DNA of 64,000 bases from a virus, in the IMG/VR virus record IMGVR_UViG_3300020599_000004, positions 63,831 through 127,830 of that record, one strand, 5' to 3'. The position numbers were made by a program, and so were the translations under genes. Numbering within the stretch: the first letter of the stretch is position 1; the number at the start of each line of letters is the position of its first letter. A model generated the notes under the pieces. It made no database searches and had not been told where the DNA came from. It worked only from the letters and a program-made list of their open reading frames with translations. Positions 9,958 through 32,379 of this stretch are shown piece by piece.

Positions 9958-12900
9958 CTAGAACGTTGAACGCCGTGCTACACTGACAGGCAGTGCTGGC
10001 ATGGCTTGAGGGTTGCGCAGGAACGGTGGCACACCTGCCGTGGAGCTTTTAGGTGCCGCTACGGGTTGCGCTTGCGGTTGCCCTTTAGGCTCAGCGGTTT
10101 TAGCTTGCATCAATTGCAGGATCATACCCAACTTCTGGTCCATGGATTGCGACACTTGCAGTTGAGCATTCAGTACAGCGGTCACCGAGTCTACTGACGT
10201 GGTCAGCTGCTGGTTTTCCTTACTGGACTGTTTCTGCGCGATGGCAGCCTGCACCTGCGGCGTGGGCAATGCCGGAGCATCGTTTGCCACAGGGGTGGTG
10301 AGACCCGCTGCTGCGGAAGGTTGTACACCCGTAGCGGCAGCGCTGTCCTTACCTGCTGCCACTGCATCGGCACCCATGGCTCCCATTGCAGGAGCATTGC
10401 TTTGGGCTTGTTGCGTATAGGTGCCATTGTTAACGCCTTTCATGGCTTTGGCCACTTCAGGGTCCATCTGCCCCAGGCTACCGGCGGTAGGCCCAGAAAC
10501 GTTGTTCCCATTGGCGGTAGCAGCCGCTTCTGCGATTTTACCCACCTGATCCTTGTTGAGCACCGTAGAAGCCACATCCTGCCCCGGTTGTAGGTCATGC
10601 ATTCGACGTCCTTTGTTCAACCGCGAGGACATCTCTTGCACCACTTCACCCACGGTACGTGGACGACCGCTCGCAAAGAAGATGGAAGAGTTCGCGCTCG
10701 GTACGTTGGAATCGACGTACTTGGTGGAGACGTCACCCGGTGGGGCGCTGAGGAACCTACCCGCACCATTCGGGCCAAGGAAGTGAGCCATGTACAGGTC
10801 GGTGTCGGTGATCTGACGACCTAGTCGCTTCTGAAGATAGTCCGCATTCTCTTTCAAGAACTCCATGCCCATCAGCGCGTTTGCACGTGCATCAGTAGGA
10901 GGCGTTCGGGGATCAATCCCGTACTTACCGGCGTACTTCTCTATCATGCTCTTCCAAGTCCCTCCAATGAACTGGAAGAGCCCCGTTGCCGTAGACGTAC
11001 CCGCCTTGGCATTGGGTTTGAAGCTGGACTCGATTGCCGCCACTGTGGCTGCTGTGGCTGGGTCAAACCCTGCCATCTTAGCCGCAGCGATGATCGTGTC
11101 TCGGACACCGTTCCACCCATCACCCGTGGGCATCGGAATCTGGTTGATGTCACCGCCTGTACCGTTACCCGGTTGGGCCATGGGCATCCCACTGCCAACA
11201 CCTGCCCCGTAGAACGGAATGGTGCCGGCGATTCCTTGTTTGGACTTGTTGAACGAATCCCCCATCTTTTGCAAGATGGATGTCCGTTGGGTGATCTCAC
11301 CAGTCTTGTAGCCCGACAGCGGTGAGGGCGCCTGGGTGAAATCGACCTTAGCTTTGTTATCCTTGCTGATGGGTCGATTGTTCTTCGGCGTGATGGCGTT
11401 AAGGAATTGCTCGGTGTACTTCTTCTTATCCTCAGGTCCTTTGAGGGCATCGATGTTACCTTTGATGCTTTCCTTGTCCTCGTTCAAGACATAATCCGGC
11501 CAAGGACTGGCTTTGACTTCCCAGATGGACACCTTCTCGTCCTGGAAGGTCGTCTGAGCGGCGGCTGTTTCTTGCAGCACTTCAGCCATTTCATTGCCGC
11601 TAAGCTTCTTCATGGCCAAATAGGCGTCGATCTTCTGACGTGCCCGTACCGAGGTGGCGTACTGCATCATGACCGGCAGGAAGCGGAACCGATACCAGAC
11701 GTACCAGTCAGTCTTAGCCCGCGTGTTGGTCGTGGAAACACCAAAACGCTGCATGGCGTCAGCCACGAACTCATCTGAGCGCTTGTCCACGTTGGCAACG
11801 CCATCGCTATCGTACTCGATGATCGGCCAGACCTGGCTTTCCAGGTACATCAGGTTGTCGGCCTTGGATTTCTCCAGATCGACCAAGCCATAGATCTTGA
11901 ACCGAGCAGCCATGGCAGCATCAAGTTGCGATGCAGGAGCTTTAGCAGGCTTGAATAGCTTACCTGCAACCCAGTTGGCGATCACGCCACCACCGATACC
12001 ACCCAGTAGCGTTCCTGCTGCGGTTAGCGCCATCTTGGCCAGGTTCGAGGGTGTTAGGGTGTCCTTGATCCCTTGCCAGAACCGTGACATGATCCCAGGT
12101 TTGCCCTGGGGACCAATACCCGTAATGGACGCCACGCCCTGATCCGTGGTCTTTTTGGCAAGCTCCGCTGCTTTCGCCTGTTCAGGGCTGGCCAACTTAT
12201 CCTTGTCGCTACGTCCAGGACCTGCCTTGTAGTAGAACTCGGCATCGCTGACCCACGACTTCACGTCGTTGGCGTCGCAGTCCAGATCCCCAGAGAACGG
12301 ACTATTGTCCGTGTCGTCGTAGGCATCTTCCAACTGTTCCAGCTTGGTGGCTTTGACGTAGTCCAGACCCAGTTCCTTGGGCAGTTTGTCGTCAGCTTCA
12401 AAGACTTGCGCCCCTTTAACCATCGAGTGCAGCGTGGTGGCATGAGAGAGGAAGACCGGCTTGAACCGCTTCTGGAACCAGATGATCCAGCGCTTGATAC
12501 GCTCACGATCACCGGTTTGCCGTGGGTCGATTCCAAAGATCGGGAAGACTTGCATTGGCGTAATGGATTTGTCATCCAGCGTAGCCAGTTCTCCATCGTT
12601 GCCGAACCGGAGGGCTTTACCGCAGACCTCCTCCAGCTTCATGACGGCTTCAATTTCCTTATTGTCGTGCGGGCTAACCCCGTACTGCGCCATCCGCATG
12701 GAACCCAGCACCCCCAATTTCTTGTTGAGGTACTTGTACATCTTGTACGCACCGTAGCCAACGACACCAACGGCAGCAGCACCCAGCAGTACAGGTGCCG
12801 AAACGAGACCCGCCAGCAGTGTGCCCAGTCCAGTGGCGACTGCTCCTGCTGCGGTGGCGATACCGCCTGCCACTGCCCCAGCCACGGGTAGAGCTTCACC

Positions 12901-15900
12901 CAGCCACGGCAAGAAGGGTAACAGTTTCAGGGCTTGTCGGCCACCCCATTTGAGGAAACCCCATCCCTTACTTCCTGCCCACTTAGCCTTACCCAAGAAC
13001 CCTTTGGAGTTTTTCCAAGTGCGTTTGGGCTTCCTTTTACCCTTACCTTTTCCTTTCCCCTTCTCTTCGCCATCACCACCGATAGAACCACCGATGTTGA
13101 TGTCGCCATCATCCCGATCTTCCTCGATCTCTTCCTGACGCTGGAAGAACTTCTTGAAGAGCCCGCCCAAGCCATCGAGCAAACCACCGCTCGACTGCTT
13201 GCCCGATTCCGCTTTCGCTTCCTCGTCGGCTTTCTTCTTCTCCTTGCTCCGCATGATGTCTTGCCAGGAATTATCCCGGATACCATCGTCATCGGAATCA
13301 CCCAAGACTTTTTTCTTCACTGGGAAGCGAGCCTTAAGGTGTTTCAGGATTTCATCTTGGATGCTGGTCTGATGATAACTCAGGGAAACCAGGTCGTCCA
13401 TCGGCTCGCCCGTGGATTTACCACGTGCTTTAATGCCTTTACCGGTGAAGAGGTTCTTAAGCCCCTTGATGCCACCAGTGAGTTTCTTGGTCCACCAGTT
13501 GGTGAGCGTAAAGGGTAAACTGAACGCCGCCTTACCAAACTCTTTCAGGTTACCTAGCAGGTTGGCACCTTGTTCCATCTTCTTGCCAAGGAAGTCACGG
13601 AATCCACCGCTGTTACGCAGCTCCTCTGCCGTAACGACGATGTTACCCGCTTTGTCGACCACCGTGCCCTTGATGTCGTCGTAGGTACGGATAACCTTCT
13701 TGGTTGCTTGATCGAAGTACCCACCCTCTTCCATGAGGACAGCACGGATACGCGGGATGGACTCGTTGTTGATGTAACCATCCTTGATCTTGTCCTTGGT
13801 CCGACCAAATGCCGCGCCGATACCCGCTTTCGCCCCTTTCCACAGCAGGGCATAAGGCAGGGTGGAAGCCTGGAGATAACCCTTGGTCAGTTTGCCCATG
13901 AGGGAAGCTGCTTTACCTGCTAGCGACTTACCGTAGACATCCTTAAGACCTTGAGCATACTCTTCAGCATCCAGCACCAGGTTACCGGCTTTATCCCGTA
14001 CAGGACCGGTAATATCCTTGGCAGACTGGATCACCTTCTTGGTGTTCTCGTCGATGTACTCGCCAGCTTCGATCAACTTCTTACGCAAGGCCGGGACCTG
14101 ATCCTGACCTTTGACGTAGATGTCAGCCACCTTATCCTTGGCAAAGGCTTTCTTCGTAGCCCACCAGCCCAGACCCGCAGTTTTCTTGGTAGCCCACCAG
14201 GCACCCAGTCCAGCGCCTTTATAGAGGTTACCCCACATGCGAGTGTAAGCACCGATGCCTTTGGCGCCCTTACCAAAGGCCCACTTGGCACCTCGCCACA
14301 AACGGTTTCCTTTGCGATTTTGGTTACCAGGTGCAGGCGGACCATCCCCTGCACTCCCTTCACCTCCTCCTTCACCGCAGCACTCTTTGGAGGCGATATA
14401 CCCTAACAAGTCGATCATCTGGCCTGACAGCTCCAGTTGACTTTGACGACCGGTTTGGATAACCTCCTTCATCGAGCGCAATTCACCGAGGATGATGCTC
14501 TCATTGCCCAAGTAGCGACTCAGCAAGAGATCACTGACTTCTTGCGTGCCGCCTAGCGTCGGCGTTTCATCCAGCGGGCCAGGTCCAGGGGTAGGTGGTA
14601 CAGGAGGTCTGCCACGCTCACCACGAGGAGGACGAGGAGGACGGCGACGCTTGCGCTTACCACCACGATTACCCGGAGGTTGTCCCGCGGGTTTCTTATC
14701 GTCTTCTCCATCGAGCAGATCCCAGATGTTGTCGAAGTCGATCCGATCATTACGGCCATTGCCGCTGATTAGGCCGAGCTCACGCAGGTTGTCCAGACCG
14801 AACGCGTTGGCATAGCCGCGCAGGCGATCACCCACAGCCGGGATGATATTCTGCATCCGATCGAACTTATCTTGCAGGCTGACCATGCGTTCGTGGTACT
14901 GGGTCGAGTTGTCTGCTTCATTGCCGTCGTAGTCCAAACCGAACTCATTACGGAAGAAGTAGCGCAGCTCATCGATCGCCTCGTCCGAGAGGTTCTGGCG
15001 ATAGTTCTCGCGTTTAGTGTAACGTCGAGGGTCGAAGGCCTCACCTCGTGCCAGATCACCGGTGATCTGCTTGAGCAGCACTTTGCGGTTACTTTCGGAG
15101 AGTATCTTATCCTTGTCGATATCATCCATCATCCGTTCGACTTCGGATTTGATGAGATCTGCTTCGTTCTTCGGCAGGATACTGGACTTGATGTCCTTGT
15201 GCAACACGCTCTTCTTGCTAAACCCACCTCTGGCGACGTTCCAGGTGTCCATGTCGTCATCCAGCTGACCGGTGGCGACACCTTTTACCCAATGGTTGAT
15301 CTGTGCCAGGTAACCCGGAATCACTTCATTGATCGAGCGATGGGTCATCCGGTCAAAGATTGCAGGCTGGTCAGACGTAAGCAGGTGGTTATCGGCTACC
15401 TTGTCGTTCAGGTAGAACTTAGGCATGATGTCCTTGAGCAGTTGCGTCAAGGTGGAACGCGCACCATAGCCTTGAGTTTCCGATTTTGCCCAGCGGTTGA
15501 GCTTCTGAGGCGCGCCAGTCAACAGCCGACCCAGCTTAGCCCCACCCCGCCGCAGACCCTCGTGCTTCTGCAAGAAGGGGTTGGCCATAATCGACAGGTA
15601 GTCCAGCGCCGTCCCGGTCAACATCTGACCTGCTACCATACCGGAGTTGGTAGCTTTGTCCATGCCGAACTCATCCCCACCGCCCATCCCCGCCAGACTG
15701 ACAGTGTCAGCCAGCGGAGAGACGATACCTTGCACCAGACCCGTCAGGTTCTGCATCAGCTGGTCACGGTAGTTCCGCGTCCAGTTGGAGATGGTGTTAA
15801 GACCAGCGCCCGTCAGGCGCTGTTTGAGCATCTGACTGGCCAGTTCACTCTTATGGATTTTAACGGCATCAGGGAGCGCGGTGTTTTTGACCACCTTCTC

Positions 15901-16721: not shown

Positions 16722-18173
16722 ATGGACTTCAAAATGCTCCCGACCCAACTGTGGCTCCTGGAGCTTACGGACGAACGGGTCAGGCATTTGCGACCTGTGA
16801 CCAGCCTGGACATCTACGATGGTGCCACGGCCAACTTCCATGAGGATGGTCTGTACTCTACGTCGATCTTCGGCCGAGTCGGGACCCGTGAACGCGATGA
16901 GCGCTTCTCGTACATCGACATCAAGGCGTCTATCATGCACCCGAAAGTCTTCCGGGATTTGGTGGCGCTTAAAGGTCTCTATAAAGGCATCCTCTCGGGT
17001 AAAGAAACCGCTCGCTGGGACGATGAGATCAAAGACTTCGTCGCAGATAAGTCCTCGGCAGGGCAAACCGGCTATAGCTTCTTTATTAGCCACTGGAAAG
17101 ACATCGTCCTGCGTCGCAACAAATCGCCTTCACGCCAACAGCGTGTGGACTTTATCGAGAAGTACCGCGATAAGGCCATGACCAGCAGAGTGGTCGTTAT
17201 CCCGGCAGGTCTACGTGACCTGGAAATCGGCGACAACGGTCAAGCAACCAAGAACGAGATCAATGACCTGTACTACAAGTTGATCTCGATCAGCAACACC
17301 ATCATCAAGAACCGTGACATGGAGTCGCCAGCGCTGGATATCCCGCGCTATTCCCTGACCATGACCTTCTGCGAGATCTACGATCTGCTGGAGCAAATGA
17401 TCCAGGGTAAGAAAGGTTTTATGCTCAACCGCTGGGGCAGTCGTAAAGTCTTCAACTCCACGCGTAACGTGTTGTCGGTGATGGACACCAGCTCTTCGGT
17501 GCTGGGTGAACCCAATGCACCTGGCTACGACGCCACAGTACTCGGTCTGTTCCAGACAGCGAAGGGTCTGCAACCCCTGACCATCCACCTGCTGCGCAAC
17601 AGTTATCTGTCGAACATCTTTAGCGAAGGTGAATCGTCGGTGCCGTTGATCGACAAAAAGACCTGGCAACAGGAGATCACCTCGATCGCACCGGAAACCC
17701 GTGACGAGTGGACGACCAAGGAAGGTCTGCTTAATGTGCTCAACAGTTATTCGGATGTCGATGCGCGTCATCGTCCCGTAGAGGTAGAAGGCCGTTACCT
17801 GGCCCTGATCTACAAAGGCGACGACATGACGTTTAAGGTCTTCTACGACATCCGTGACTTACCGTCTCATCTGGACAAGAAGAAGGTCAGTCCCATCACC
17901 CTGGTGGAACTGCTGTACCTTTCCGGATATCGAGAATGGAACAAGTACTTCGTCTCGGTTACCCGATACCCCGTCACGGGTGTGGAATCCATTTACCCCA
18001 GCCGTGTGTACGTCAAGACCACCACGGTGGGCGAGGTACGTTACGAGTTGGGTGAGGATTGGGAACCGATGGGGGACGAATTCCGTGCGTTGGAATTCCC
18101 ACGCGCTGACATCAATTCCTTCATGGATTCGCAAGCGCCACACTCCTCCCGTCTTAAAGGCCTAAACGCGGAT
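16722..18173 (+). CDS. virion RNAP beta' N-terminal subunit, exon 1 (phiKZ gp180-like)
   Basis: DGLYSTSIFG, VIPAGLRD, GKKGF...GSRKVFNSTRNV; ends GLNAD, the first half of the catalytic NADFDGD motif. Confidence 0.93.
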
Positions 18174-18526
18174 TAACAGTAAAAGCATATATCTACATGC
18201 TTTGAATAAGTCCCCTCCAGGCGAAATCCTGGAGTGATATCTCCTTAATTGCTGGAAACCCCTAAAGCTGCTCCACCACTGCGAGCCGAAAGGCAAAGCC
18301 ATGGTTAGACAACGGAGCGGATATCACAATGGGCAATCAGCAGCCAAGCGCCGTACAGGTGAAGGTTCAACGACTAGAGCGTAGCGGCTCGTACCCGACA
18401 GCGTCGGGGAAATGGGAGACACCCTATCCCGTAAGGGAGGGTGAAGATATAGTCTGTTCCTGTAGGAGACTACAGGCGGGTGTCCTTGCACACCGGGTGG
18501 AAGTCGCGACTCCACTGGACAATAAG
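18174..18526 (+). mobile_element. group I intron 1 (IA2-like, 353 nt, no ORF)
   Basis: P AAUUGCUGGAAAC, Q AAUCAGCAGC, R GUUCAACGACUAG, S AAGAUAUAGUCU. P1 is exon GGAU / GUCC (18209-12) with a U.G pair; P10 is UUCGA/UUGAA. P7.1, P7.2 and P8 hairpins are present and the intron ends in G. Splicing restores NADFDGD. Confidence 0.95.
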
Positions 18527-18739
18527 TTCGATGGTGACACCGGTTCGGCCACCATTCTCATGACCCGTGAAGCATTGGAGGAGAATGAAGCGTACCTGGG
18601 TACCCGTCAGGCGTGGGTCTCGACCGATGGCAAATTACGCGCCAGCGCAGCCTACGATACCCTCGAACTGGTCGTACGCAACCTCACCGGCCGTTACGGC
18701 TACCAGCAAGAACAGCTTCGTAATCCGATGACTCAATAA
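18527..18739 (+). CDS. virion RNAP beta' N-terminal subunit, exon 2
   Basis: FDGDTGSATIL... 70 aa; the spliced product is 554 aa. Confidence 0.92.
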   Translation, partial: FDGDTGSATILMTREALEENEAYLGTRQAWVSTDGKLRASAAYDTLELVVRNLTGRYGYQQEQLRNPMTQ

Positions 18740-18755
18740 GCAGAGAGCTAAAACC

Positions 18756-20555
18756 ATGTCGATGCTTCTCTATCCGCAGTATTACAGACGCTTCGGGGTG
18801 TGGCAACCTGGCCACATCATGGCCCCGCGTCTGTTCCCACTGTCCATCATGCGGTTGCCGCGTGACAGCGTGCTGCACTATCAAGCCGAGTCGGAGGCCG
18901 AATACGGTCCTCCGTCCGACGATCTGCTCCTGCAAGGCGTGCCGCGACTGACCTTTGTAGGGCATGTGACCCAACTGACCAGTCTGCTGGGTAACCCACG
19001 TTCGGCCTACGTACCCCCAGGCCCGATGATCAATGAGTACCGTCGCCGGTACCGGAAACTGCGGCCGCTGAACAAGTTGGAGATCGCCGATCGGGAACCT
19101 CAGAACCTGATCGTGCAGAACTACGCGCTGCTGCCGCATCTGTACAAGTACATCCGCAGCTTCTTCACCCTGTACTACACCTGGTACAACCTCCAAGCGA
19201 CTATGGTGAGTGGGATCAACGACATGTTGGGGCAGTCCAACCGCCACAACTACATCCAGATCCAGCTGCCCAAGGTCATGCCTTCATTGCAACAGCTGCG
19301 TCTGGCCCAGGCGCGTCGTAGCAAAACTCAACTGGAACCGTTCAACAACTTCGCTGCGTTGAATATCCTGGACTTCTTCACCTGGTTGGGTAAAGACCGG
19401 GAACATTCGCTCCTGTCGAAACTGCCTCACGACAAGCTGGACCACGTGGACATCATCTTCCGTCACGTCGGTACTTGGTTCACTGTCAACCTGGGCAAGT
19501 TGGACTCGTGGCGCCGTGCAACGGAGAAAGCGTCCACTGAGGGCGTTTCGCTGGAGTCCATCGCCGCATCCGGTCAACTGGGTGTGTCCATGGAACAGAT
19601 GGCCGAACTGTCGGCCTTCCTGGAAGTCTCCATGGAAGATGTGCAGATTGATGCAGCGACATTCCAACTGCGCGTTCTGAAGATGCTGATGGCACTTTAC
19701 GAGGCCAGCACGTTGGCAGGTTCTGATCAACCGAACAAACAGGTTGTGCAAGAACCTGAAGCGGTGGCAACCGATCCGGCGGCAGTGGAAGAGAAAATCG
19801 AGATCGGCCACGACGAGACCAAGAAACAGCTCGATGAACTGCGTCAACCCATCTCCGACGAAGAGATGGAAGAACTCTCGGCGCTGGATAAAGAAACGGC
19901 AGCTGAACTCGATGCCGGTGAAGAGGACGATGGCACCGAGTACGATGAAGATGGTGTCATGATCATCAACGACACGGGCGCCAAACCGGCGATGCATCTG
20001 CCGCCCGCGGTTAGTGCACCCAAGCCGCAGGTCGTTAAAACTCTCTCCAGTGCCATCGAAGAGAAGGTCGAAGCCCTGGCGGATCAAGGACTGCTCTCGG
20101 CTGCCGAATACCGAGCTAAGCTGCGTGCCGCAGTGGCGTACAAGTCCCTGAAGGACCCCTATGGCACAGGCCAGACGGTTGAAGATGCGCTGAGAATCGA
20201 CCCCAAGTCCCTGGTGATCGATCAGAATGCCTCCTTTGTCGATATGCCGCAGGTGCTGGACAAGTCGATGCTCAAATCGACAGTCTCAGACATCGATCGT
20301 CAGTACGTCGAGAATGTCTTGCCGAAAGATATCCTCAACGCTGTGATGGCCGTACAAAATGCCGGCATCGCAGTGACGGACTACAATATCGAACGCGTGG
20401 TCGATGCAGTCAGTGACTTTGAGGTCCACTCGGTGCAACTGACGCCTGCGGTCGGTCGGCAGTCTACCATCCGCTTCCGTGTTCCGCGGGTGACGACCGA
20501 TGGCACCTACATGTCCAACGGTACACGCTACCGTCTAAAGAAACAGCGAAGTGAT
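18756..20555 (+). CDS. virion RNAP beta subunit, exon 1 (phiKZ gp178-like)
   Basis: 600 aa ending YMSNGTRYRLKKQRSD (compare RpoB FVINGTERVIVSQLHRSP); continues after intron 2. Confidence 0.9.
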
Positions 20556-21147
20556 TAAAGCCGATATCCTTGACGAATTAATGATATAATTACATTCGTC
20601 GATGGATATTGTAATGAGTAAGGTTAAGAGAGTAGTAGGCTGTAAAGGGTTCAGCAATGATGAATTCATCGCCATTGCTGAGAGTCGAAACACCTCTTGT
20701 CAGCAATTGCTAAAACAAACCCTGATGTAGCCGAACTGTTTTAACCTGACTCATCGTGCATGGTCACTGTGGCGTGGTAACACGCCACTAGCAAACCTAC
20801 CTAATTGCGGGAAAACGTCTATAATCTCCATGGCTACCACTTGACGGTCGAAAGGCACGTCAACACCCATCCCAGTAATGGAAGCGATGGGCACGGTAAA
20901 AACGTCCTGGAGAGACACAACCGGCGCAGCGAAGCCCCTAAATCCTACATGGACATGGGGTGTGCTCAGAGGCCATCGAACGCTACGGTACCTCAAAAAA
21001 AAGGTGCTTAATGACACCTGTATAAAGCCAGGTGGTCACCTAGGTGATTAAAGCCAGTAGAGTAGGAGGCTGTTACAGCTCCGAAACGGTAGGCACCCCA
21101 CCCAGCTCAGGCTGGAGGGTGAAGATATGGTCCATCTAAGGGGGATG
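20556..21147 (+). mobile_element. group I intron 2 (about 592 nt)
   Basis: P AAUUGCGGGAAA (about 20802), R GCUCAGAGGCCA (20964) and S AAGAUAUGGUCC, with a co-varied P7 (GGCCA/UGGUC). P1 is exon AGUGAU / GUCACU (20763-68) and P3 is CCUACC/GGUAGG. The 3' splice site is most likely GAUG|CUU (alternative 21144/21145, same frame). Confidence 0.92.
20614..20744 (+). pseudogene. remnant of an intron-encoded ORF (probable homing endonuclease) in the P1 loop
   Basis: MSKVKRVVGCKGFSNDEFIAIAESR..., followed by an out-of-frame protein-like tail KHLLSAIAKTNPDVAELF* (20688-20744). AT-richer than the flanking exons. Confidence 0.5.
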
Positions 21148-22593
21148 CTTCCCCTACGTAAGGTCTCCCCGACCCGTGTGGCACTGTCGTCGTATTACGC
21201 CAAGATTTTCGTGGATAAGTCCGACCGTGCCACTTTTAACTACGACAAGTACGTCTCCGACCAGATCGTAGCCAAGGGTCTGAACCAGGCTGACAGCACC
21301 ATTACCGATATCCGCATCTCCAACGTGGCGGATAACACGGTTAAAGTGCCGCGGATCTATGCGGTGCTGGCTGCGCGGGTGGCTTCATTCAAGGCAGGTG
21401 GAGCAGAGTACTTCTTCGATTACCGCAATCGCTTCGAGAAGACCTTCACGCCAGAAGAACAGGCACTGGAACGCGATGGTGCTGTGCTGGTCGGTCGGAT
21501 TGGTCGTAATCCGATCATCGTGGACACGAACGATGTGTTCTACGAGGCCAGTGGAGGGGAACTGCGGGTAATGGGACGGGCAGAAGACCTCTTTGCTTTG
21601 ACGGCTGAGAAAGTACCAGCCCCCATGGCAGAGTTGAAGATCTTCAGCAAGGTCATTCCGCTGGGTGTCGTGTTGTCGTACATGCTCGGCTTTAATAACT
21701 TGGTCAATCTGCTGGGTGTTCGTCCCCGTCGTGTGCCTAACGGCCAGCGCATGAACCTCATGCCAGACGAATACGCGATTCGTTTCCTCGATGAATCGCT
21801 GATCTTCCCGAAAGATGATGTCAAGTCGGCCTTGATCCTGTCTGGTTTCAACCTGTACCACGCTACCATTCGTAACTACAGCGTTTACAGCTTCGATAAG
21901 AAGGACATCTACCTCAACCTGCTGGAAAACTACGGTATCGGCATCCGTTATCTGCGGGAAATCGATCTGATGACGGCGATGTTCATCGACCCGATCACCA
22001 AAGAGATTCTCCAGTGGATGAAGGAGCCCACGGAACTGGCCGCTCTGCTGATCCGTGCTGCGGAGATGCTGGTAACGCTGTACGTACCGGATCGAGTGGA
22101 AACCGCACCGGGCATCGTGGAAGGGATGGAGCGTGAACGGGGTTACGAGCGCTTTGCTGGGGCGGTGTATTCCGAACTGGTGCGTTCGATCAGGACCTAT
22201 AACGCCCGTACAGCCACCTCGTCTGCATCGATCAGCATGAACCCGCACGATGTTTGGACGACCATCGTGCAAGACCCGGCCTCTGAGCCCATCAACGAAG
22301 CCAACCCGATCCACAACCTGAAGGAAAAGGAGGTCATTACCTTCGGTGGGCGCGGTGGCCGTTCTCGCCGTTCCATGGTGGCAGATTCTCGACTGTATAA
22401 GAAGACCGATGAGGGCTTCATCAGCGAGGCAACTGTGGATTCCGGGGACGTAGCCATCATTACCTACGTGCCGCCCAACGCCAACTTCACAACGGTGCGT
22501 GGTACGGTGCGGATGTTGAACGAAATGACGGACGGTCCTTCCAGTCGTCTGTCCACCGCGGCATTGCTGGCACCGGCAGCTGACCGCGATGAT
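21148..22593 (+). CDS. virion RNAP beta subunit, exon 2
   Basis: LPLRKVSPTRVALSSYY...GRGGRSRRSM...GFISEATVDSGDVA...LAPAADRDD; 482 codons. Confidence 0.92.
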
Positions 22594-23072
22594 CAATTCT
22601 GAATATACGTGAAGTAAACACTCCGACTCGGTATTCTCGCGACTACACTGAATCTCCGACTCAAGACCGAAGGGAAGAAGGTCTTCTCGGATAACAAAAC
22701 CTACACGTATATTTAAAACGGTCCGGGTAACCTGAGAGGGTTACTTGAATCTCCTCTAATTGCTGGAACCCGCTTAGAGCTGTCTCACCACAACGTGGTC
22801 CGAAAGGACGAGCGTGACGGTCTGAAAACGAGACGGATTGGGGAACCGTGGGTCCTAAGGACCCCTGTAGCAGCCAAGACCCTACCGGTGCTCTGCACCC
22901 ATGGGTAAGGTTCAACGACTAAGGCCTTATCAGCCTGTACCCAGTAGCACTGGGGAAATGGGGAGCACCCTACTCACGGAGAGGGTGAAGATATAGTCTC
23001 GACATCCAGGGAAAGCCTGGAGCAGTGCTTAAGTGCACGGGTTCAATCTAGCGAGTTGGACTGAAGACTTCG
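22594..23072 (+). mobile_element. group I intron 3 (IA2-like, 479 nt)
   Basis: P AAUUGCUGGAAC, R GUUCAACGACUAA, S AAGAUAUAGUCU, with P7.1/P7.2/P8 hairpins and a terminal G. Splicing restores DRDD|PKRVNFINIQ (compare RpoB HDDANRALMGANMQ). Confidence 0.93.
22618..22716 (+). pseudogene. C-terminal HTH remnant of a homing endonuclease inside intron 3
   Basis: TLRLGILATTLNLRLKTEGKKVFSDNKTYTYI*, with no start codon. It resembles the NUMOD1/IENR1-type HTH tail of GIY-YIG enzymes. Confidence 0.5.
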
Positions 23073-24194
23073 CCAAAGCGAGTCAACTTCATTAACATCC
23101 AGCAGACTCACGGCATCAGTGCAGTGGGTTACCGTGCCACCCCGTTGCGTACGGGCTACGAACAGGTGTTGGCTCAACGTACCGATGACCTGTTCGCTAC
23201 CGCAGCTAAGCAAGACGGCAAAGTGGTAGAGGTGACGGACTCGTCCATTAAGGTCGAGTACGCCGATGGGCAAATGGTGGCCATCGAGCTGGGTCGTAGG
23301 TTCGGATCCAGCATGGGCATGACCTTGCCACATGAGGTGGTCACTTCATTCAAGGTCGGTGATCCGGTAAAACGCGGCGACATCATCGCGTACAACAGTG
23401 GCTTCTTCGAACCGCTGTATGGCAATGAGAAACAAGTTGCCTGGAAAGCCGGTGTTATTGCTCGCACAGCGTTGATGGAAGCAAGCTATACCCTGGAAGA
23501 CTCCTCGGCTATCAGCGAACGGATGTCGCGGTTGCTGGGCACACAAGTGACCAAAGTTAAGACGGTGCTGGTGAAATTTAACCAGTCCGTCCACAACCTG
23601 GTAAAGGTGGGAGATAGCGTCGATCTCGACACAATCCTATGCACCATAGAGGACTCTGTCACCGCGAACGCTAACCTGTTCGACGAGAAATCGTTGGCCA
23701 CGTTACGTCTGCTCTCTGCCATGACACCCAGGGCGAAAACCGTGGGTAAAGTGGATAAGGTGGAAGTCTTCTATCACGGCGATTTGGAAGACATGTCCGA
23801 GTCGCTCCAGGAACTGGCCACTACGGCTGACCGTGACCGCAAGCGTCAAGCCCGGCGACTGGGTAAGCCGCCGGTAACTGGCATGGTCGATCAGTCCCTG
23901 CGGATCGATGGGAATGGCCTGGATCTCGACACGGTTGCGATCAAGGTCTACATCACCAGCACCGTAGGTACTGGCGTCGGTGATAAGGCAGTTTTTGCCA
24001 ACCAGATGAAGACGGTATTTGGTCGTGTTTTGACCGGTATCCATGAAACCGAATCTGGTGAGGAACTCGACGCGATCTTCGGCTTTAAGTCGATCCAAGA
24101 TCGTATCGTCCTGTCTCCTATGATCATCGGTACGACCAACACCCTGCTGCGCGTTATCGGTGAGAATGCCGCCGAGCTCTACTTCCAGGGTTAA
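23073..24194 (+). CDS. virion RNAP beta subunit, exon 3
   Basis: PKRVNFINIQ...YTLEDSSAIS...VGDKAVFANQMKTVFG...LDAIFG. The spliced total is 600+482+373=1455 aa, similar to the phiKZ gp178 size I recall (about 1450 aa). Confidence 0.92.
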   Translation, partial: PKRVNFINIQQTHGISAVGYRATPLRTGYEQVLAQRTDDLFATAAKQDGKVVEVTDSSIKVEYADGQMVAIELGRRFGSSMGMTLPHEVVTSFKVGDPVKRGDIIAYNSGFFEPLYGNEKQVAWKAGVIARTALMEASYTLEDSSAISERMSRLLGTQVTKVKTVLVKFNQSVHNLVKVGDSVDLDTILCTIEDSVTANANLFDEKSLATLRLLSAMTPRAKTVGKVDKVEVFYHGDLEDMSESLQELATTADRDRKRQARRLGKPPVTGMVDQSLRIDGNGLDLDTVAIKVYITSTVGTGVGDKAVFANQMKTVFGRVLTGIHETESGEELDAIFGFKSIQDRIVLSPMIIGTTNTLLRVIGENAAELYFQG

Positions 24195-31806: not shown

Positions 31807-32379
31807 ATGCCGGCTTATTACATCCTTACCCATAAACCTACGGGAATGTATTACATAGGCTCGACTTCCAATCTGATCAAGCGCCTTAGCCGGCACAAGT
31901 CTGCATTGAATAGCCGTTCCCATGAATGTGCTAAATTACAAGAAATATACACCTGCTGGGAAGATATCGAGATCGTTTCTCACGAAGTTGGTTCCATCGA
32001 GGAAGCCCGTCGAATGGAACAAGATTTACTTAACACTCATTTCAGGAAATCGAAATGCTGCAATACATCTTCAAGTGCTGAGCCATTCGGAGATATGACC
32101 GCTGAAGATCGAAGCAATCTTCATCGCGGTCATAAGTACAATCTAGGCAAAGCCCATTCGGACGAAACGAAGGCGAAAATCGGAGCAGCAAGTTTAGGGA
32201 GAACAAAGTCTCCTGAGGTGCGTCAAAAGATCGCCGCTGCAAAAAGCAAGAAGGTTTCCATCGATGGGACTGTTTACGATAGCATCAAAGACGCTGCTTA
32301 TAAACTAAACCTGCCCTACATGACTGTATCAGGTAGACTCAAGTCAACGAGATATACAGCTTGGTTCTACATTGAGTAA
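31807..32379 (+). mobile_element. free-standing GIY-YIG homing endonuclease (Seg-like) with NUMOD3 repeats and C-terminal HTH
   Basis: AYYIL...YYIGSTSNLIKRLSRH, Glu in RMEQDLL, CCN; NUMOD3 repeats HSDETKAKIG and KSPEVRQKIA; SIKDAAYKLNL HTH. AT-richer than its neighbours. Confidence 0.93.

Follow-up and report, generated by a model that had tools for sequence, protein, structure and literature searches.

How are the genes for a virion RNA polymerase (vRNAP) read when three inserts interrupt them, and how did the inserts come to be there? The question is raised by the 64,000-nt stretch analyzed here (the window), which makes up the latter half of a 127.8-kb IMG/VR virus contig (IMGVR_UViG_3300020599_000004, positions 63,831 to 127,830; ~47% complete) from an uncultured phiKZ-like, nucleus-forming jumbo phage (Chimalliviridae). 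Two adjacent genes of the window encode vRNAP subunits; gene A is phiKZ gp180-like and gene B is phiKZ gp178-like. Judging from their sequence, the inserts are very probably three splicing-competent group I introns that carry no homing endonuclease genes and occupy recurrent homing sites in catalytic motifs of the polymerase. The insertion points of introns 1 to 3 are referred to as sites 1 to 3, and the exons and introns are arranged as follows (ORF, open reading frame; IGS, internal guide sequence; P1 to P9, the paired regions of the ribozyme).

16722..18173, + strand: gene A exon 1, gp180-like vRNAP beta'-type subunit, ends ...GLNAD; PHROG 2986 positions 1-484 of 539, E 7e-184
18174..18526, + strand: intron 1, 353 nt, group I, no ORF; inside the Mg-binding motif NAD|FDGD; IGS AGUCC at 18209-18213
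18527..18739, + strand: gene A exon 2, FDGDTGSAT..., 70 aa and stop; gap-free alignment to intronless homologues
18756..20555, + strand: gene B exon 1, gp178-like vRNAP beta-type subunit, ends ...KKQRSD; PHROG 3148 positions 1-574
20556..21147, + strand: intron 2, 592 nt, group I, second ribozyme type; IGS UGGUCACU at 20761-20768
21148..22593, + strand: gene B exon 2, LPLRK...ADRDD; PHROG 3148 positions 575-1050
22594..23072, + strand: intron 3, 479 nt, group I, no ORF; at the site of the PhiPA3 gp210 intron; IGS GGUC at 22720-22723, then the P2 hairpin
23073..24194, + strand: gene B exon 3, PKRVNFINIQQ...; PHROG 3148 positions 1051-1420; gap-free alignment

The initial annotation had proposed three group I introns from the letters alone, and a search with the Rfam group I covariance model RF00028 (gathering score 50 bits) bears this out, with matches in all three inserts. 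Intron 1 scores 85.5 bits (18193-18476) and intron 3 54.1 bits (22701-23022), and the model finds no match beyond the three inserts across the 128-kb contig. The site-2 homologue of intron 2 in a related phage (locus L033, IMGVR_UViG_3300018411_000019) reaches 55.3 bits. The junctions read GCG GAT|TAA...AAG|TTC GAT GGT GAC for intron 1, AGT GAT|TAA...ATG|CTT CCC CTA for intron 2, and GAT GAT|CAA TTC TGA...TCG|CCA AAG CGA for intron 3. As had been noted beforehand, all three introns are in phase 0, follow GAT and end in G (18526, 21147 and 23072), and each meets an in-frame stop within three codons, at codon +1 (TAA) in introns 1 and 2 and at codon +3 (TGA) in intron 3. Their excision predicts products of 554 aa (gene A) and 1455 aa (gene B), which align with the intronless genes of phages pPa_SNUABM_DT01 and Xoo-sp14 with zero gaps at all three junctions, and the gene B exons cover PHROG 3148 in consecutive segments. 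The proposed protein junctions NAD|FDGD, KQRSD|LPLRK and DRDD|PKRV are thereby upheld. Full-length frames are restored only by excision, and both subunits would thus depend on splicing, three events in total, as had also been claimed.

Pairing between guide and exon agrees with these boundaries. For intron 1, exon GGAU|U pairs with the IGS AGUCC, and for intron 3, GAU|C pairs with GGUC directly before a clean P2 hairpin. The P1 of intron 2 joins AGUGAU|UA to UGGUCACU in 8 bp, and it covaries with the exon in three phages: the corresponding pairs are GCGGAU|UA:UGGUCCGC in locus L043 and GCGGAU|A:UGUUCGC in L033. The compensatory change at this site thus sets AGUG with CACU in the window against GCGG with CCGC or UCGC in the other two. 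Within the site-3 family, the intron-side pairs covary as well (C:G, UA:UG, UGU:ACA), and the three guide sequences of the window share GUC, which pairs with GAU. In a predicted minimum-energy fold of intron 1 with its flanks (z = -3.8), the hairpins can be read as P1 to P9, two further hairpins being placed between P7 and P3', an arrangement known from phage IA introns. Subgroup IA (phage-type) introns have extra hairpins, P7.1 and P7.2, between P7 and P3'. The Rfam alignments show 35-110 nt inserted there, and IA is a candidate subgroup. A possible compensatory change, from U-A to C-G, was read by eye from the Rfam alignment in P7 of intron 2.

A further pairing was observed in all four site-2 introns, where the 3' end of the intron pairs with 3' exon positions ~+4 to +10 (UAAGGGG/CCCCUA, GAUGGG/CCCAUC, GAAUUGG/CCAAUUC and GGUUGG/CCAAUC). 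As a result of this pairing, which changes together with synonymous substitutions in the exon, the 3' splice site comes to lie in a hairpin loop. The paired segments lie at 21136-21158 in the window, ~14290-14320 in L033, ~14830-14862 in L043 and ~5300-5340 in L094 (Vibrio phage vB_VmeM-Yong XC31, MK308674.1).

A U at the end of the 5' exon and a terminal intron G are universal features of group I introns. The GAU at all three sites arises because the splice-site U of P1 falls at conserved Asp codons, so that insertion "after GAU, ending in G" is ordinary group I chemistry and no special coincidence. Introns of the same family are also found after other sequences. The phiKZ gp56 intron follows AAU. 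At the point 11 nt downstream of site 3, the introns split a Val codon after GU, and in locus L058 an intron 2 nt downstream of site 1 splits a Phe codon after UU. At the three sites, the third base of the Asp codon differs with occupancy. Intronless alleles have GAC in 46 of 48 cases at site 1, in 33 against 13 with GAT at site 2, and in 30 against 15 at site 3, whereas GAT stands in every occupied allele except that of L080, in which the exact insert junction is not placed. Pooled GAT:GAC counts are 13:1 in occupied and 30:109 in intronless alleles (Fisher p 1.7e-7, from rows that are related and not independent). The stop codons are equally unexceptional, UAA being the start of many introns in this family; early in-frame stops are a general group I trait and, in the published view, aid intron folding (PMC3984707).

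From established group I chemistry, splicing can be pictured as follows. The pre-mRNA would fold so that the guide core 5'-GUC-3' pairs with the exon ...GAU to form P1; a guanosine would attack after the U, and the terminal G would set the 3' splice site. Ligation would then restore NADFDGD, ...QRSD-LPLRK... and ...DRDD-PKRV..., and the stop at or near the start of each intron would keep ribosomes off the ribozyme.

To place these introns among relatives, occupancy of the three sites was surveyed in 80 related IMG/VR loci, obtained with an alignment-based scan (a single-protein scan gave 2), by chaining tblastn matches of the spliced proteins across the loci. The genomes of phiKZ, PhiPA3 and Vibrio phage Yong XC31 were read additionally. 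The following introns were found at or near the three sites.

Site 1 (NAD|FDGD), phiKZ: 1443 nt, with the HNH gene gp179, 357 aa
Site 1, Yong XC31: 1430 nt, with a 315-aa HNH ORF
Site 1, L080 and L083 (PDCC-1-like): insert with a 421-aa HNH ORF, exact 3' junction not placed
Site 1, L033 and L046: 362 nt and 396 nt, respectively, no ORF
Site 2 (D|LPxRK), L043: 1547 nt, with a 389-aa DUF723/treble-clef protein
Site 2, Yong XC31: 1491 nt, with a 234-aa relative of the L043 protein
Site 2, L033: 464 nt, no ORF
Site 3 (DD|xKRV), PhiPA3: 1352 nt, with gp210
Site 3, L033: 1386 nt, with a 340-aa gp210-like HNH protein
Site 3, 201phi2-1: 336 nt, no ORF
Nearby, L058: 9 nt upstream of site 3, after GAU; also 2 nt downstream of site 1
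Nearby, L015 and L030: 11 nt downstream of site 3

All three sites are thus also occupied in related phages, most of whose introns are supported by Rfam, and the premise that relatives' nucleases target these sites is supported by HNH or DUF723-type genes inside introns at sites 1, 2 and 3. Of the 80 loci, about 70 lack these introns altogether, only ~10 have an insertion at or beside the three sites, and L033 is the sole locus besides the window in which all three are filled. In the closest relative, L030, sites 1 to 3 are all empty, and a 1361-nt intron is inserted 11 nt beyond site 3. A minimum of seven insertion points was counted in the vRNAP motifs, and at four of these the intron comes after GAU. 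Three distinct points, used in different phages, lie within 20 nt of the DRDD-PKRV motif, namely site 3 itself, the point 9 nt before it (L058) and the point 11 nt after it (L015 and L030; compared with 22585-23085 of the window). For site 2, a non-exhaustive literature search found no published description. The vRNAP genes of Yong XC31 are broken up by its nuclease-bearing group I introns at these two sites (1 and 2), and the pieces are all annotated in GenBank (MK308674.1) as "hypothetical proteins".

Several of these introns have been described. The phiKZ gp180/gp179 and 201phi2-1 gp273/274 introns are published, and for the latter, spliced reads and proteomic support are available (PMC11512511). 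Like intron 1, the phiKZ intron lies at GAD|FDGD after GCG GAT, begins with an immediate TAA and has the same type of 5' end; it differs in its length of 1443 nt and its 357-aa HNH ORF, against 353 nt without an ORF in the window. The 201phi2-1 intron shares site 3 and the ORF-less state with intron 3, but it is the sole intron reported in that phage, as opposed to three in the window. In PhiPA3, a "weaponised" intron encoding gp210 interrupts the vRNAP beta gene gp211/gp209 at a site that corresponds to D675 of E. coli RpoB (Birkholz et al., 2024, PMC11620839). This intron and intron 3 share their codon boundary, the second Asp of DD being the last residue before the insertion and the 5' exon ending in GAU GAU, and they have homologous ribozymes with cores ~70% identical. 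However, the P1 loop of the PhiPA3 intron holds a 330-aa HNH nickase gene, whereas intron 3 has ~125 nt and no ORF there. L033 also resembles the window, with three occupied sites and homologous ribozymes of 72-78% identity, although its site-3 intron retains the 340-aa gp210-like HNH gene and its gene A protein is only ~56% identical to that of the window. In a different gene and host clade, three ORF-less group I introns are reported from orf142 of phage Twort (Landthaler and Shub, 1999), an earlier case of a single phage gene with more than one group I intron lacking a nuclease.

Relationships among the ribozymes bear on where the introns came from. In a maximum-likelihood tree of 18 ribozyme cores, two types are separated (support 96/92): intron 2 clusters with the rest of the site-2 introns (90/99), and introns 1 and 3 belong to the other type. 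The nearest ribozymes are those at the same site elsewhere, namely L033 and L046 for intron 1 and PhiPA3 for intron 3 (70.5% identity over ~310 nt of the core); intron 2 is 74.5% identical to the L033 site-2 intron. Each intron was therefore acquired or inherited at its site and not copied within the genome. A triplication within the genome was considered and rejected, as introns 1 and 3 are of the same type yet closer to introns of other phages, and intron 2 is of the other type. Over a longer range, ribozyme type does not follow site: the introns of phiKZ gp179 (site 1), 201phi2-1 (site 3) and phiKZ gp56, a gene of the non-virion polymerase (nvRNAP), form one clade (99/98), and both types occur at site 1. 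Cores and sites have therefore been reshuffled over time.

In agreement with the initial description of the introns as endonuclease-less, no Pfam domain, and hence no nuclease domain, was found in the ORFs of the three introns on either strand. A contig-wide search yielded no HNH or HNH_3 match, and tblastn of relatives' nuclease proteins against the contig gave nothing significant. The further statement that the introns have lost their nucleases fared less well, since blastx, local DNA alignment and a repeat hidden Markov model (HMM) brought out no significant remnant, which leaves loss plausible only. Specifically, when the nuclease proteins of three relatives were compared by blastx with the empty introns, only noise was returned (best E 0.09), and local alignment of the 5' intron parts with nuclease-bearing homologues was no better than with shuffled sequences, except in the guide/P2 region. 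The nuclease genes of those homologues are housed in the P1 loop, downstream of the 5' splice site and ahead of the IGS, and long unconserved P1 loops are retained in intron 2 (~200 nt) and intron 3 (~125 nt), which fits decay of a nuclease gene. The loop of intron 2 contains a 42-aa ORF (20602-20730, + strand) with a weak LSxExFIxxA-like match, in the corresponding position, to the N-terminal repeat of the site-2 nucleases. Against the DUF723-type repeat HMM it scores 0.7 bits, equaled by 8 of 200 shuffles (~p 0.04); it may be the last trace of a lost nuclease gene, although the match is suggestive at most. The genome is not free of homing nucleases, since the window encodes a free-standing I-TevI-like homing endonuclease of 190 aa (31807-32379, + strand), whose domains are GIY-YIG, NUMOD3 and the I-TevI DNA-binding domain. 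Outside the window, a 313-aa open frame contains another GIY-YIG match (G000:C1:37893-38120, - strand).

Several points weigh against the reading of the inserts as splicing-competent introns without nuclease genes. The RF00028 match of intron 2 (20742-21157, 46.7 bits, E 1.4e-9) is below the gathering score, and the P1 of intron 3 comprises only three exonic and one intronic base pairs. Splicing at the three junctions is deduced from the sequence of a metagenomic contig, whose ~47% completeness leaves room for nucleases or further introns elsewhere in the genome. Moreover, with no remnant detected, loss of a nuclease gene would look the same as never having had one.

The preferred account of their origin is that homing from a relative would have brought in each intron, given that the ribozyme nearest to it occupies the identical site in a different phage, and that the nuclease gene was later lost or never co-transferred, leaving the introns in the ORF-less stage of the homing cycle. 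Resistance to the cognate nucleases would then be a likely by-product of the split target site, in keeping with the standard homing model, in which a split target protects the occupied allele (PMC3984707). Over-expression of gp210 left PhiPA3 (site 3 occupied) unaffected and inhibited phiKZ (PMC11620839), whose empty site 3 reads GAT GAC|CCT. By analogy, protection of the window allele at site 3 is a fair inference. Protection is not assured for every enzyme, because the HNH nickases I-HmuI and I-HmuII cut intron-plus as well as intronless alleles (PMC3428280) and gp210-type proteins have weak I-HmuI-like NUMOD matches.

A stronger version holds that selection acts as a form of "vaccination", the empty introns being kept because three split targets guard against the nucleases of co-infecting relatives. 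Relatives do carry nuclease-bearing introns at all three sites, the gp210 experiment points the same way, and the triple-occupied state recurs in L033. The same data fit neutral persistence, however, insertions in only ~10 of the 80 loci do not make a strong general pressure evident, and I-HmuI-type nickases can cut occupied alleles, so that selection for immunity is possible but improbable. An extension to the whole group, in which chimallivirus vRNAP motifs form a network of homing sites that exchange ribozymes and nucleases and the window's triple-occupied, nuclease-free genotype is a selected, fully "vaccinated" state, is unlikely. The sites seem to trade two lineages of ribozyme and no fewer than two families of nuclease, and with a guide pairing as short as GAU:GUC, a single lineage could move from one Asp codon to another.

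That shared pairing is also the starting point for the proposal that these introns never bore nucleases and spread by reverse splicing into GAU sites, or were mobilized in trans by free-standing nucleases (collaborative homing). The failure of ribozyme lineage to track site, the free-standing GIY-YIG gene of the window and the lack of nuclease remnants are consistent with it. Yet each window intron is nearest to a same-site intron elsewhere, as homing predicts; mobility by reverse splicing is without direct experimental support (PMC3984707), three base pairs provide little site specificity, and the GIY-YIG gene is ~7.6 kb away. This route seems decidedly unlikely. It is highly improbable that splicing instead serves as a regulatory gate, by which the amount or timing of virion polymerase synthesis is controlled. 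Three apparently obligatory splicing events in two co-oriented late genes would suit such a gate, and condition-dependent splicing is known in phages (PMC10914365), but most relatives encode the same proteins in uninterrupted genes and the sequence indicates no sensor. Acquisition by homing at each site, with resistance as a by-product, is thus the reading adopted here.

The window is a clean further example of a known intron class, as all three sites are also used by related phages. Intron 3 is a natural nuclease-free allele at the sole phage homing site whose nuclease, PhiPA3 gp210, has been shown to act as a weapon, and the two other occupied sites in the same operon offer a handy test set for whether empty introns protect against relatives' nucleases. 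In the survey, the third base of the Asp codon goes along with the presence or absence of an intron, and the type of a ribozyme is only loosely tied to where it is inserted. For annotation, two genes should be joined across the introns in place of five called fragments.

The identity and setting of the two genes agree with those of other phiKZ-like phages. Gene A matches PHROG 2986 and gene B PHROG 3148, both named RNA polymerase beta subunit, and a Pfam search of the vRNAP exons gave no match. Gene order is as in phiKZ, with a gp181-like gene for a 2231-aa protein (- strand) followed by the gp180-like and gp178-like genes. A megablast comparison of the region with cultured phages brought up no near relative; the nearest cultured one is Pseudomonas phage pPa_SNUABM_DT01, whose vRNAP subunit has 57% aa identity to gene A. 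Loci L035 and L037 have ~1.4 kb of extra DNA between genes A and B, which could be a free-standing nuclease gene. Other inserts of 360-420 nt were seen in gp178-like genes of L061 (~14682-15061), L041 (~12162-12571) and L058 (~18216-18595), the last of which is a group I intron according to Rfam.

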